A stretch of DNA of 64,000 nt from an uncultured Flammeovirgaceae bacterium (GCA_937899105.1 CALBPF010000339.1:1267-65266), one strand, 5' to 3'. Positions 54,591 through 61,040 are shown, numbered from the stretch's first letter. Numbers and translations: made by a program. Notes: a model not told the origin generated them from the sequence alone.

Positions 54591-57500
54591 ATTTCTGAGA
54601 TCGATAAGCACAAAATTATAAACGAATTTAATCAGACCAAGAAAGAGTTTCCTTCTGATAAAACCATCATGGATTTGTTTGAGTCACGTGCGACCGAATG
54701 CCCTGATAGCATTGCCGTAAGGTTTGAACAAGAGCAGTTGACCTATAAAGAATTAGATGAAAGGTCGGATCAAATAGCTAGTTATTTGGCTGAGCGTTTT
54801 GATAAAAAGGGCACTGTTATTGGCGTTTACCTGGAACGCTCTTTAGAACTAATGACAGTCTTGTATGGTATACTGAAGTCAGGAAACGTCTACTTACCTC
54901 TTTCAAGGCGCTATCCGATAGATAGGACCCGATATAGCCTAAGAAATAGCGAAGCTAAGGCGGTGTTTGTGATGCAACAAGATCTAACACTATTTGCCGA
55001 TGAGTTTGAATGTATAATGGAAGGAGATATATCGGCCAGTGCTTCTGCTCATGTAAATCATTCCGATCCTGAACAACTCGCCTATATTATTTATACTTCC
55101 GGCTCTACCGGCCGTCCAAAAGGAGTACAGATCAAGCACCGATCGATCGTTAATCGGCTCAATTGGATGCAGAATGAATACCTGCTGGAAGCGGGAGATA
55201 CAGTACTTCAAAAAACACCAATAGTCTTTGATGTTTCTATCTGGGAATTATTTTGGTGGTCCATCTCAGGCGCAAAACTTGTTCTGGCTCAACCAGGGGT
55301 AGAAAGCGACCCTAAAGCGCTGTGTCATATTATTCGTGAAGAAAAGGTTAGTATCCTTCATTTTGTTCCTTCCATGTTGACTGCATTACTGCAATATTTA
55401 AAAGATAGCGATGATTATGGATCACTAAACAGCATAAAACACCTTTTTGCCAGTGGAGAAGCGCTTAAAGCGGAAGACGCACAGTTTTTTCTTAGAAAAT
55501 GCCCCTCAGCAAGGCTTCATAATCTTTACGGACCTACCGAAGCGACTGTAGATGTATCTTTTCATGAAGTTTTACCCTCTCGTGAATATGATAGGGTTCC
55601 CATTGGTAGGCCCATAGACAATACCCAACTCTACATATTTAGTGCAGAAATACAACTTCAACCAATTGGTATATCCGGAGAACTATACATTGGGGGTGAG
55701 AACTTATCTGTGGGTTATCTTAATCAGGAAGAGCTTACCAGCGAGAAATTTGTTACAAACCCGCTTAATGATGATTCTTTGCTATATAAAACCGGCGACC
55801 TTGCTAAGTGGTTACCCGACGGATCTATTGAGTTCTTAGGGCGTATGGATCACCAGTTGAAGATTAGAGGCAACAGAATTGAACTTGGGGAGATTGAACA
55901 CATGGTTAATGCTATTGACAAAGTGCGCAACGCTGTAGTGCTGCCCAAGATGGCGAAAAGTGGTTCACATCAATTATTATGTTTTTTTGTTGCAGAGGTA
56001 CCACTTTCCGAAGATGCAATTACAAGCCATCTCGTCGCCCGATTACCGGATTATATGATTCCGGCTGATTTCATTCAAATCGATGAAATTCCAGTGACGG
56101 TAAACGGTAAAGTGGATCGAAAAACTCTGTTGTCATATAAAAAAATAGAAAGTGAGGCCTATACTGGGCCTGAAACAGGTTTAGAGAAAAAACTAACTGT
56201 TCATTGGAAAGCAGTACTTGAGGTAGATCGAATTAGCATTACTGAAAGTTTTTTCAGAAGAGGAGGAGATTCAATATTAGCCGTTCGTTTGATCGGCGCA
56301 ATCAATCAGGCATTGACATTGGACCTTTCGGTCCATGATCTGTATGAAAACAATACCATACAAGCCCTTGCTTCATTCATTGAAATTTCAGAACCCGGAC
56401 CTGGCCGCAAGAAATACGAGGAAGTAGAAGCAGAACTGGCAGCTTTTGACCTAAGTTATAAGCATAAAATTGAGGATGTCAATATTGAGGTAGTCTACCC
56501 GATGTCTGATATAGAAAAGTCTATGTGTTATGTCAGTCAATCCCGTCCGGAAGATATCCTATACTTCGAACAGTTGATGGTACCTGTGACTTACGAAATG
56601 TTGGATCTGACTATATTACAAAAAGCGCTAAATCTACTCATTGAAAAACATGAAGTACTTAGAACAGGCTTTGATCTGGGTGAATTTGCGCACATTGTGT
56701 ATAAAGACCTGCCTACTAAGATCAAGTTTCATGATTTAAGTTCTCTTGATGCCGAAGACCAGAAAAGTACCATCAAATCCAACCTGGGAAAAAGCCGTCA
56801 ACAACATTTTGACCTGGGTTCAGCTCCTTTATGGCGTATCATATTATATAAACTCTCGGATCATCATCATGAACTACTTTTTGAATATCATCACGCTTTG
56901 CTGGATGGGTGGAGTTATGCTTCATTGCTTACGGAGTTAACGAATACTTATGGCGAATTACTCAGAGATGAGTCCTTCAAACTGGTTCCTTTAAAATCAA
57001 ATTTCAAAGATGTAATTACGGTTGAGCTGGTAAGCAAAAACGATCAGGAAGCCATTGACTTTTGGAAAGTACAGTTAAAGGACTTCAAAAAATTGAGCCT
57101 TGAAGTAGGGGATGGTGATAAGACATTCCAATCTGTCAGAGAAGCTTATCCTACACAATTACTAAAGGACCTGGATCAAGCGGCCAGACTAAAAAATACA
57201 ACAGTTAAAACCATTCTACTTTCCGCATATCTCTATTCATTAAAAGTAATTACCGGAGAAAGCGATTTATTGGTTGGTTTGGTGACTTTCAATAGACCAC
57301 TTAAAGAAGATGGCGACAAAGTGCTGGGCTGCTTTCTAAATACTATTCCATTCCGCTTTAAACTCCCAGCGGGTATCTCATGGACAGCGCTTATACAATT
57401 GGTAGACAAAAAACTTCTTGAATTGAAACGGTTTGAACATCTGTCCTTATTTGAGATCAACCGAATTACGGGGGAACAAACCTTCGGAGGAAATCCACTC

Positions 57501-60500: not shown

Positions 60501-61040
60501 CATCCATTGGTGCGCCAAACAGTAGTAGTAGTTAAAACTTATCAAGAGGATGCTCACCTGGTTGCCTATTACATTTCAGAAGTAGAAATAAACCCTGACG
60601 ACCTACGCAATCATTTACTGGAACAATTACCGGAACATATGGTCCCTTATCATTACGTTTTTCTTGAGGCACTTCCAATGACAGTAAATGGTAAGATAGA
60701 CCGCAAGGCATTGCCAGCTCCGGAACTTACATTAAGCAACGACTACGTAGGCCCGTCAAGTGAAACAGAAATAAGGTTGGTTCGCATATGGAGCGAAATC
60801 TTGAAACTCGATAAAGAGATGATCAGCATTAATAAGAGCTTCTTTGAGCTGGGGGGGCATTCTTTGAATACAATTGCTATGGCTAACAAGATATATAAAA
60901 CCTTTAATGTGAAATTGACCCTCCAGGAAATTTTCGATAAAGCTACCATTGAGCAGATAGGGGAACATCTTGATGCCTGTTTGTGGCTAAAAGAGAAGCC
61001 GTCACCTGATCAAGTCGATAAAGTTACGATCAAAATCTAA
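53871..61040 (+). CDS. NRPS-6: truncated C lobe-A(Ser)-T-C(D-donor/dual-type signature)-Cprime-A(Ser)-T-docking tail
   Basis: 2389 aa. The N-terminal ~240 aa align only to the C-terminal half of a C domain (NYWRNRLSG..) and have no HHxxxDG. A: TSGSTGRPKG ~55091-55125, code DVWHFSLVDK. T: GGDSILAV, Ser 56271-56273. C: HHALLDG 56889-56909. Cprime: FHRIIADPRS 58236-58265. A: TSGSTGRPKG ~59670-59700, code DVWHFSLVDK. T: GGHSL ~60850. Tail ..PDQVDKVTIKI. Confidence 0.95.
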   Translation: MPVESKLDFKTLNANKKIRTKNYWRNRLSGFEFSSYFDQGPEKEAHGQLVHSISAPRSTIKALNNVAQSDRAKHVVLLAALGVLIQKSSSYSDIAVVTSVYKRDDRPGSSNVVLPVRFEKYNAELSFTRLLTVLRDKLLKDLEHADYPIEKILDKRYDELKQTNVIGMHLTGLQASPLQAPMSFDMIFGFSSDLDNLRLSIEYDHARHNLAYVAQIGQLYFSLLEKLILQREKALSQIEIISEIDKHKIINEFNQTKKEFPSDKTIMDLFESRATECPDSIAVRFEQEQLTYKELDERSDQIASYLAERFDKKGTVIGVYLERSLELMTVLYGILKSGNVYLPLSRRYPIDRTRYSLRNSEAKAVFVMQQDLTLFADEFECIMEGDISASASAHVNHSDPEQLAYIIYTSGSTGRPKGVQIKHRSIVNRLNWMQNEYLLEAGDTVLQKTPIVFDVSIWELFWWSISGAKLVLAQPGVESDPKALCHIIREEKVSILHFVPSMLTALLQYLKDSDDYGSLNSIKHLFASGEALKAEDAQFFLRKCPSARLHNLYGPTEATVDVSFHEVLPSREYDRVPIGRPIDNTQLYIFSAEIQLQPIGISGELYIGGENLSVGYLNQEELTSEKFVTNPLNDDSLLYKTGDLAKWLPDGSIEFLGRMDHQLKIRGNRIELGEIEHMVNAIDKVRNAVVLPKMAKSGSHQLLCFFVAEVPLSEDAITSHLVARLPDYMIPADFIQIDEIPVTVNGKVDRKTLLSYKKIESEAYTGPETGLEKKLTVHWKAVLEVDRISITESFFRRGGDSILAVRLIGAINQALTLDLSVHDLYENNTIQALASFIEISEPGPGRKKYEEVEAELAAFDLSYKHKIEDVNIEVVYPMSDIEKSMCYVSQSRPEDILYFEQLMVPVTYEMLDLTILQKALNLLIEKHEVLRTGFDLGEFAHIVYKDLPTKIKFHDLSSLDAEDQKSTIKSNLGKSRQQHFDLGSAPLWRIILYKLSDHHHELLFEYHHALLDGWSYASLLTELTNTYGELLRDESFKLVPLKSNFKDVITVELVSKNDQEAIDFWKVQLKDFKKLSLEVGDGDKTFQSVREAYPTQLLKDLDQAARLKNTTVKTILLSAYLYSLKVITGESDLLVGLVTFNRPLKEDGDKVLGCFLNTIPFRFKLPAGISWTALIQLVDKKLLELKRFEHLSLFEINRITGEQTFGGNPLFDTQFNYVNWHVEEGMRLEKRVNTEPDRLDFDVFLRGNTFFDINYNVNSERILSMHEYSSPFMTPEVYAFYEKVFLSALSKVIRTPDGILDSKELYWHDEIEDVYNKLDDADNTKNLENIELPFHLEKLWNHSTDAIGNHINRNLPLTIDLEGDLNITNLQKAFHEVIDKYEVLHSQITLVDGKLLQRTLPDNEFQLDLTVIRQSQEKTDDLLEKMLNKPFKYNQPLVRAALLQTSDNRYKLMMVFHRIIADPRSIQLFSNELLYSYQALNNGKDKKNKRGIKSYFRYSLWQQKTLPRLSPYVLSYWSEQLGGSLKIVELPKDHSSEEISERNCTASVPISIKPSLFKALLRYEETTRISLDVILMACFKVLLNKYTGQEEVLIGRTTDNRTKQGLKELIGPISDITLVRSFIPQDINFDEYISTLDEIYTDAVKFCVIPHETLMHKLGLDNSVSGNGPKINILYHFEDHDRENCAINDLSVEIIQPYRDDREYDLSLLLNRSDSGVSGEMIYNPAHFDHSGIQQMVRRFYELAANLLSSPQDKLSQQELIPQNEKDQILNEFNDTNAAYPLDQTIVSLFEQQVENTPENVAIRYGTKVLSYRQTSELSNQIAHYLIGKGVKRSDLVGIMLERNEYMIPVLFGALKAGAAYLPIDPTYPNERKKIIIEDAGINTLISIDSFPNEPSIGVAQVLNLKDMLQEIQSLPISSPVVQLDGGDLAYVIYTSGSTGRPKGVMIEHRSVVNRLMWMQKKYPINEQDVLLQKTPIVFDVSVWELFWWSFTGASVSLLKPNEEKDADAIIKTIKDHEVTTIHFVPSMLSIFMAVTDNGFDYMALKSLRQVFASGEALKSDYVRAFGDSIHKHCQTRLINLYGPTEATVDVSYYECDFTLPIGRIPIGKPIDNLKLYVLGGDDNISPIGVKGELCISGVGLARGYFNNKALTDEKFVIHPFSPGERMYKTGDVARWLPDGNIEFIGRKDDQVKIRGFRIELGDIEHQLLEHPLVRQTVVVVKTYQEDAHLVAYYISEVEINPDDLRNHLLEQLPEHMVPYHYVFLEALPMTVNGKIDRKALPAPELTLSNDYVGPSSETEIRLVRIWSEILKLDKEMISINKSFFELGGHSLNTIAMANKIYKTFNVKLTLQEIFDKATIEQIGEHLDACLWLKEKPSPDQVDKVTIKI
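57860..59150 (+). other. Extra C-like domain (Cprime) between the condensation domain and the second Ser A domain of NRPS-6
   Basis: ~430 aa. Starts LPFHLEKLWNHS..; active-site box degenerated to HRIIADPRS (second His and Gly lost). The C-terminal lobe SYWSEQLGGS.., ..IGPISDITLVR.. parallels the Cprime of NRPS-5. Followed by the linker KLSQQELIPQNEKDQILNEFNDT. Confidence 0.75.

Follow-up and report, generated by a model that had tools for sequence, protein, structure and literature searches.

A degenerate, serine-linked C′ domain in a nonribosomal peptide synthetase cluster and the widespread, threonine-associated clade to which it belongs

Tandem condensation (C) domains have already been noticed in syringomycin-class nonribosomal peptide synthetases (NRPSs) and in the synthetase MgpC (PMC9897216, PMC11411415). 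Module 6 of KeaB (keanumycin) contains a tandem CL domain, the role of which was stated as not investigated (PMC9897216). Residue 6 of keanumycin is L-allo-Thr by Marfey analysis, and the corresponding adenylation (A) domain is predicted to select Thr (PMC9897216, PMC10599466). MgpC, of the megapolipeptin pathway, starts with C-C-A(Thr)-T; its second C domain is the only one of the pathway with an HHxxxDR motif, and in the product L-allo-Thr comes directly after L-Thr (PMC11411415). For this tandem the authors propose iterative use and starter-like capping (PMC11411415). The origin of L-allo-Thr in bacteria was called unresolved in 2023, and a route based on a short-chain dehydrogenase/reductase was proposed for Streptomyces (PMC9943842). 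Here a comparable arrangement is described from an uncultured Flammeovirgaceae bacterium. The 64,000-nucleotide stretch analysed (GCA_937899105.1, CALBPF010000339.1:1267-65266; hereafter the window) encodes two C-like domains, termed C′, that stand between a C domain and an A domain, one in NRPS-5 and one in NRPS-6. The NRPS-6 C′ is the most degenerate member of its clade, is linked to a Ser module and represents a variant that was not previously known.

The NRPS-6 didomain and the C′ clade

The architecture of NRPS-6, deduced from Pfam matches and motif positions, is (C-terminal-lobe-only C)-A(Ser)-T-C-C′-A(Ser)-T, with three Condensation, two AMP-binding and two PP-binding stretches. A sequence-only reading of the window had placed a tandem C-C′ in the Ser module of this gene, and Pfam and the A-domain code agreed with it, coordinates included. 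The features of the didomain module are listed below.

53871..61040, + strand: NRPS-6 gene, 2389 aa (open reading frame list, translation, Pfam, A-domain codes)
56490..57776, + strand: first C domain of the didomain, aa 874-1302 (Pfam Condensation)
56889-56915, + strand: motif HHALLDGWS of the first C domain, intact (translation)
57858..59195, + strand: C′ domain of NRPS-6, full-length C fold, approximately aa 1330-1775 (Pfam Condensation, E=6.9e-59, profile positions 28-456)
58239..58265, + strand: degenerate active-site motif HRIIADPRS of C′ (translation); clade consensus HHxxxD[R/K]xS, canonical C domains HHxxxDG
59238..60695, + strand: A domain after C′, code DVWHFSLVDK (Ser), AMP-binding aa 1790-2146, AMP-binding_C aa 2204-2275
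60774..60971, + strand: carrier (T) domain of the C′ module, GGHSL type (Pfam PP-binding aa 2302-2367)

Like most members of the clade described below, this C′ follows a complete C domain and precedes the A domain of its own module, which starts about 15 aa after C′ ends. Both A domains of NRPS-6 have the code DVWHFSLVDK, which stands for Ser in the Stachelhaus code. The other C′ of the window is found in NRPS-5, where it is followed by an A domain with the Thr code DFWNIGMVHK.

38522-49018, + strand: NRPS-5 gene, dock-C-A(Asp)-T-E-DCL-C′-A(Thr)-T-C (Pfam, motifs, A-domain codes)
43187-44524, + strand: DCL domain directly before C′
44579..45901, + strand: C′ domain of NRPS-5, canonical clade member (Pfam, comparison within the window, hidden Markov model)
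44978-45004, + strand: motif HHIMVDRYS of this C′ (translation)

The two C′ domains were 33% identical over 447 aa (239 bits), and within the window each matched the other best. The ordinary C domains encoded there reached at most 108 bits with the NRPS-6 copy and at most 169 bits with the NRPS-5 copy. The pairwise alignment also contained the common landmarks LSYW..QL, VLLNKY..QEE and IGP, so that the kinship of the two domains, read earlier from the window alone, was confirmed.

To collect relatives, one genome per species was scanned by pattern with both C′ domains of the window as seeds; 80 loci (designated by L numbers) were returned. Fifty-seven C-like domains matched the NRPS-5 C′ at 217-433 bits (35-48% identity), whereas against ordinary LCL, DCL and E domains they scored 213 bits or less. 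Together with the two window copies they formed an alignment of 59 sequences. The clade occurs in Chitinophagales and other Bacteroidota, in Acidobacteriota (Pyrinomonadaceae, Aminicenantes), in Methylovulum and Undibacterium, in the Pseudomonas corrugata/mediterranea/brassicacearum group and in other taxa, and its signature, its position and its Thr partner were found in at least five phyla. In a neighbour-joining tree it stood apart from the LCL domains on a long stem. The difference between the scores with hidden Markov models (HMMs) of the C′ and LCL groups had medians of +219 for C′ members and -202 for LCL members, with near-complete separation. C′ is not private to this cluster; it is a distinct and widespread clade. 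Sequence and fold searches of the PDB gave no separation of C′ from ordinary C domains.

The clade motif is HHxxxD[R/K]xS. Its HH...D core was retained in all but two of the 59 sequences, the exceptions being the NRPS-6 copy (HR) and that of L070 (HS). Comparison with the LCL domains of the same loci yielded 21 clade-specific positions conserved to at least 85%, including three extra histidines. The clade has S-Y-H-Q-E-R-L-W-F where LCL domains have S-F-A-Q-Q-R-L-W-F, Y-H-N instead of A-Y-N, IGPxxNL instead of IGFFVNT and DMSRTA instead of DLSRNP. It also has a small insertion with a Tyr, a His four residues past the conserved Arg of the LPxDxxR motif, and the stretches R...H and NxGxGK. Because both the HH...D core and these 21 positions are conserved, the clade looks, to judge by its sequences, like an enzyme under constraint and not like a scaffold.

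Most clade domains directly follow another C domain and end approximately 20 aa before the A domain. The upstream C is of DCL type where an E domain precedes it and of LCL type in most other loci. Since its type tracks the preceding E domain, it behaves as a true condensation domain. Three loci (L009, L076 and L015) have about 2.0-2.1 kb between C′ and the next A-domain match, pointing either to an additional domain inserted there or to an A domain that is split.

Scored with HMMs built without the window sequences, the NRPS-5 C′ gave 539 bits with the C′-family model and 357 bits with the LCL model. It retained all 21 clade-specific positions and 45 of the 47 general C-domain positions. The corresponding scores of the NRPS-6 C′ were 285 (C′ family), 239 (LCL) and 125 bits (DCL). 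In the tree it was nested in the clade, beside the NRPS-5 C′ and Chitinophagales members. Profile score and tree thus both place it in the clade, though the HMM margin is small and its branch is the longest. It retained 43 of the 81 conserved clade columns (every other member at least 81%), 6 of the 21 clade-specific positions and 32 of the 47 general ones, and its mean identity to the family, 24%, was the lowest (31-46% in the other members). Motif C1 has lost S, Q and R, motif C3 its second H, and motif C7 D, R, F and D; of the three clade-specific histidines only one is left. Neither the clade signature nor the canonical LCL set (HHxxxDG with its second His, motifs C1, C5 and C7) is present: the domain has HR...DP, without the second His and without D[R/K]. 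The replacement of HHxxxDG by HRIIADPRS had been recognized in the sequence-only reading; as the same sequence was found in three other metagenome assemblies of the locus, it is not a sequencing error. The overall length of the C fold was kept, as had also been stated.

Two natural haplotypes of the locus, 1.1% apart, differ in the NRPS-6 C′ by nine non-synonymous and three synonymous substitutions, giving a ratio of non-synonymous to synonymous polymorphism (pN/pS) of 0.77. Twelve further domains of NRPS-5 and NRPS-6, taken together, gave counts of 72 and 96 and a ratio of 0.21 (Fisher p=0.038 against the NRPS-6 C′); the NRPS-5 C′ had 0.28. The constraint on the NRPS-6 copy is relaxed, its evolution being near-neutral, and the earlier view that the two copies have diverged is supported. 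Relatives of the NRPS-6 variant outside the same organism were found neither in the genome scan (one genome per species) nor in a metagenome scan, and a tblastn search of plasmids returned ordinary C domains only, at 33% identity or less. The NRPS-6 C′ is a clade member by descent only. Because the second His and many invariant positions are gone and evolution is near-neutral, it has very probably lost catalysis. An AlphaFold2 model of the domain (pLDDT 79.5, pTM 0.80) superposed best on ordinary C domains, with a TM score of 0.87 to the Txo2 C domain. These filled ranks 1-20 of the fold search, and an X domain followed at rank 21 (TM 0.82).

The first C domain of the didomain scored 216 bits with the DCL, 166 with the LCL and 103 with the C′ model, and its closest relatives in the window were DCL domains (27% identity). 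From its motif and these scores it is presumed to be a working condensation domain resembling DCL or dehydrating C domains. Its scores were weak on every profile, and there was a weak match to the solanimycin SolG model. The Ser module preceding it has a GGDSI (E-type) carrier (aa 795-799, nt 56253-56267), yet no E domain. This first C may be a dehydrating C (converting Ser to dehydroalanine) or a dual C/E domain.

The threonine partner of C′ and a possible link to L-allo-Thr

The A domains directly after C′ had a Thr code in 46 of 48 cases; one, in L074, had a Ser code and one another code. Among the other A domains of the same loci Thr codes were much rarer (22/194; Fisher p=4e-30, a figure inflated by the relatedness of the loci). 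The pairing held across phyla. The NRPS-6 C′, with its Ser A domain, departs from it, and the only other Ser-linked C′, that of L074, is the second most eroded member of the clade. Carrier domains of C′ modules were of the ordinary GGHS type. The domain following the C′ module was LCL in 33 and E in 3 of 36 readable cases, and never DCL, C-E or dehydrating-like. The Thr residue is therefore transferred in the L form, and the next module does not dehydrate it. Formation of dehydrobutyrine by the C′ module was rejected on the same grounds.

In the Pseudomonas loci the order of A domains around C′ was Asp-like, Hse-like, His, Thr (after C′), Thr, Asp-like, which matches residues 3-8 of mycins of the cormycin/thanamycin type and puts C′ in module 6. 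Modules 6 and 7 of L039 have A domains with identical codes, so the A code does not explain the differing stereochemistry. From these correspondences and the published structures we infer that C′ may be the element responsible for L-allo-Thr.

Neighbouring genes and haplotypes

The window is occupied by an NRPS cluster of low GC content (about 39%), encoded wholly on the + strand. Its DNA was 98.9-99.8% identical to contigs of several metagenome assemblies (record names starting with BRYA16-1, samples SAMN04849738 and SAMN04849744; and run SRR3401489). The contigs end inside an NRPS gene after NRPS-6, and the end of the assembly line is not covered.

The sequence-only reading had envisaged a tailoring partner co-occurring with C′. 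The gene that comes first into question encodes a dioxygenase directly upstream of NRPS-5.

37501..38448, + strand: TauD-family Fe/2-oxoglutarate dioxygenase (Pfam TauD, E=2.5e-27)

It is about 20 kb from the NRPS-6 C′, and the first module of NRPS-5, next to it, loads Asp. A TauD gene no more than 10 kb from C′ was present in 8 of 57 loci, and about 20 loci without C′ had none. The order TauD, C-like-A(Asp)-T-E-DCL-C′-A(Thr) was common to the window, L010 and L020; in L067 it is an Asn module that follows TauD. In this context TauD is most simply taken to be an Asp/Asn β-hydroxylase. As a dedicated partner of C′ it was not retained, since it lies this close to C′ in 8 of 57 loci only and stands before Asp/Asn modules wherever the context could be read. 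The expected tailoring partner was not found; what co-occurs with C′ instead is the Thr A domain. Recruitment of a tailoring enzyme by the NRPS-6 C′ received no support.

NRPS genes starting right after a TauD gene were noted in L010 (from 4061), L020 (from 3923), L022 (from 8553), L036 (from 15657) and L038 (from 15597). They open with a very divergent C-like domain (...QLSPQQKHLW...) scoring only 58-114 bits against LCL, and these domains may be genuine interface-type domains of Asp modules.

NRPS-5 ends in a complete C domain and NRPS-6 opens with a C-terminal lobe only, which resembles a split module.

53871-54620, + strand: C-terminal-lobe-only C fragment at the start of NRPS-6, aa 1-250 (Pfam profile positions 189-455)

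Between the haplotypes this fragment showed seven synonymous changes and one non-synonymous change (pN/pS 0.04). In view of this very strong purifying selection it probably has a function, as a platform for the A domain or in docking.

Directly upstream of NRPS-6, at 49195-53731, genes were found for a protein of serine β-lactamase/penicillin-binding-protein fold (486 aa), an FkbM-family methyltransferase and an AsnB-type glutamine amidotransferase. The regions 14015-15990 and 18954-20648 encode an SbnA-like pyridoxal-phosphate enzyme and an SbnB-like cyclodeaminase (synthesis of 2,3-diaminopropionate, Dap) and a carbamoyltransferase. No obviously Dap-type code was seen among the A domains of the window. 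The last module of NRPS-3 (26618-34078) has a Gly A domain (DILQLGMIWK, halves joined) interrupted by a luciferase-like monooxygenase. It resembles MtaG/MelG, which release a terminal amide, and the window may therefore hold two successive assembly lines.

Nonsense polymorphisms between haplotypes occur at 32255-32257, 37069-37071 and 41762-41764. The window has TAG stops in NRPS-3 (at the A-monooxygenase junction) and in NRPS-4 (in the A10 motif); the contig L001 reads through both and differs from the window at two closely spaced bases in each. In NRPS-5 it is L001 and L085 that have an internal stop (TAA), whereas the window and L082-84 are open at this point. The population may thus carry a cluster that is in decay.

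Interpretation and comparison with known systems

The explanation we prefer, with moderate confidence, is that the canonical C′ is an enzyme of Thr modules and the NRPS-6 C′ a dead, folded spacer in a Ser module. The NRPS-6 region encodes a single elongation module, C-C′-A(Ser)-T, with two C-type domains in tandem, the first of which, having an intact HHxxxDG, would form the peptide bond. A canonical C′ such as the NRPS-5 copy, with its catalytic His pair kept, would act on carrier-bound Thr from the acceptor side. Our best current guess is that it would invert the β-carbon to give L-allo-Thr, by dehydration and rehydration or by a retro-aldol/aldol reaction on the thioester. The L-configured residue would then be handed from the C′ module to the downstream LCL domain. 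A Thr-type C-C′-A-T module might have been copied or recombined and would now load Ser. As Ser has no β-stereocentre, the side-chain chemistry of C′ would have no object in NRPS-6, and the active site could decay. The fold would be kept because the domain links C to A in one polypeptide, and it would serve as a non-catalytic spacer setting the C-A spacing. By itself the NRPS-6 copy is probably only a relic. The earlier suggestion of a scaffold in place of a catalyst would hold for this copy only, and only weakly, as a spacer; for C′ domains as a kind, the conserved HH...D core does not support it. That C′ itself is a real condensation domain was rejected, because the second His is missing from the NRPS-6 C′ and it is the upstream C whose type follows the stereochemistry of the donor. 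The further proposal that the clade is a new catalytic subtype of the condensation superfamily, making L-allo-Thr from carrier-bound L-Thr in line, is tentative, and we consider it less probable than its contrary.

Several observations weigh against this explanation. To our knowledge, β-epimerization by a C-type domain is without chemical precedent. The link to L-allo-Thr consists of two chemotypes from the literature, and KeaB and MgpC were matched by architecture, motif and taxon. L074 retains HH in front of a Ser A domain, so linkage to Ser does not by itself cause decay. The pN/pS contrast for the NRPS-6 C′ is built on 12 substitutions only. The domain remains an uninterrupted fold of 450 aa in four other assemblies (three contigs over 58239-58265, plus L083/L084) and still has H1457, D1462 and S1465, so that its function may possibly have changed instead of being lost. 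Conceivably, the Ser code of NRPS-6 stands for Dap, given the SbnA/SbnB-like genes of the cluster. Finally, in L070 (Tenacibaculum agarivorans) a TauD gene (8933-9952) lies exactly between a gene ending in DCL and a gene starting with C′-A(Thr). It is the only locus in which TauD abuts C′, and the motif of that C′ is HSIVFDKAS, the second His being lost. This hints that recruitment should still be considered, including a version in which an Fe/2-oxoglutarate enzyme performs the β-inversion while C′ presents the substrate.

Interface (I) domains were reportedly described by Reitz et al. in 2019 from siderophore and related synthetases. If C′ were a non-catalytic docking platform of this kind, or of the X-domain kind, its task would be to recruit a tailoring enzyme, acting in trans, for the residue on the carrier. 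The partner would be the TauD protein encoded at 37501 or a product of the β-lactamase-fold, FkbM or AsnB-like genes immediately upstream of NRPS-6, and the NRPS-6 copy would merely stand further along the same line. The motif HRxxxD, which we take to resemble that of X domains, would fit this, as would the TauD gene of the window, the three tailoring genes ahead of NRPS-6, the occurrence of TauD near C′ in some loci and the gene order of L070. The place of C′ just before the A domain is indeed that of the I domain (PMC13638107, PMC12230676). We nevertheless think docking unlikely. The clade keeps its HH...D core, unlike I and X domains; its partner residue is Thr or Ser and not Asp, His or Glu; TauD directly precedes an Asp/Asn module in the window, L010, L020 and L067; and the sole TauD-type enzyme of mycin clusters is assigned to Asp8 (PMC9897216). 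Pfam showed no P450 gene in the window, and near-neutral evolution of the NRPS-6 C′ is not expected of a conserved binding surface.

The intact reading frame and fold in all assemblies, together with the retained H1457, D1462 and S1465, could also reflect a new catalytic role of the NRPS-6 C′ on Ser, such as side-chain acylation or carbamoylation, elimination to dehydroalanine or amination towards Dap. The carbamoyltransferase, the AsnB-like amidotransferase and the SbnA/B-like enzymes, whose substrates are unassigned, would suit such a role. It appears quite improbable, more so than docking, because the general structural and catalytic motifs C1, C3 and C7 are eroded and not merely altered, because pN/pS is about 0.8, and because a variant without relatives outside this organism in the genome and metagenome scans gives no indication of a conserved new type. 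Least of all do we believe that C′ is an ordinary duplicated LCL domain without family identity, owing its likeness to a recent duplication. Both copies do lie in one cluster and are each other's nearest relatives within the window; however, the clade is set off from LCL by its long stem and by its HMM scores, and domains that share its signature, its place in the module and its Thr partner are present in at least five phyla.

If the tentative proposal of a new catalytic subtype is true, C′ would be the first enzyme of NRPS assembly lines to epimerize a β-carbon. The tandem C domains of the megapolipeptin and syringomycin-class synthetases would then be accounted for, as would the source of L-allo-Thr in peptides of Gram-negative bacteria, with the NRPS-6 copy as a natural dead version stranded in a Ser module. 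The analysis defines the clade by sequence, shows that it pairs almost exclusively with Thr A domains across phyla and provides a naturally inactivated copy for comparison. The L-allo-Thr hypothesis can be tested genetically in tractable Pseudomonas strains. In genome mining, C′ could be flagged as predicting L-allo-Thr, or at least a modified Thr, and domains of the NRPS-6 type could be flagged as inactive and not counted as a second condensation step.

Among the described C-like domains, dehydrating C domains (DHC or CmodAA: AmbE-C2, AlbB-C2/C3, LgnD-C2) resemble C′ in being C-type domains that act on Ser/Thr side chains (PMC10880069). They group with DCL and C/E domains, keep HHxxxDG and act on the donor from an upstream carrier of GGDSI/T(E) type. 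C′, in contrast, is on the LCL side, has a C and not a T directly upstream and is followed by LCL; the NRPS-6 copy in addition reached only 125 bits with the DCL model and has a degenerate motif. The first C of the NRPS-6 didomain is a better candidate for a DHC than C′. The X domain of glycopeptide synthetases (PDB 4tx2, 4tx3) is, like the NRPS-6 C′, a degenerate C fold with a mutated His motif. It is a recruitment platform after the last T and before the thioesterase, binding the P450 Oxy enzymes, whereas C′ stands between C and A in the middle of the line; Pfam scans of the reading frames of the window revealed no P450. The I domain (the GlmF partner in glidomide; IMxgB) is a C-like domain before an A domain, as C′ is, and often lacks HHxxxDG, as does the NRPS-6 C′; it is thought to serve a trans-acting TauD-type hydroxylase (PMC13638107, PMC12230676). 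Compared by description, I domains pair with Asp, His or Glu modules, while the C′ clade pairs with Thr and keeps HH; the module residue is Ser at the NRPS-6 C′ and Thr at NRPS-5 and in the clade.

The nearest likeness is to the systems named at the outset. MgpC (Burkholderiales) agrees with the clade in the tandem order, the G-to-R change, the Thr A domain and the L-allo-Thr product (PMC11411415); compared by description, the NRPS-6 copy differs from it in having neither HH nor DR. With the mycin tandem CL the NRPS-6 C′ contrasts in preceding a Ser A domain, in lacking the second His and D[R/K], in having 6 of the 21 clade positions and in its Bacteroidota-like, not Pseudomonas, host. The syringomycin-class mycin synthetases themselves (KeaB module 6, keanumycin/nunamycin, thanamycin and cormycin-type) have the same C-C′-A(Thr)-T followed by LCL, and the Pseudomonas loci L027-L068, with the motif HHLLADR[T/S]S, fall in the same clade as the NRPS-5 C′ at about 35% identity.

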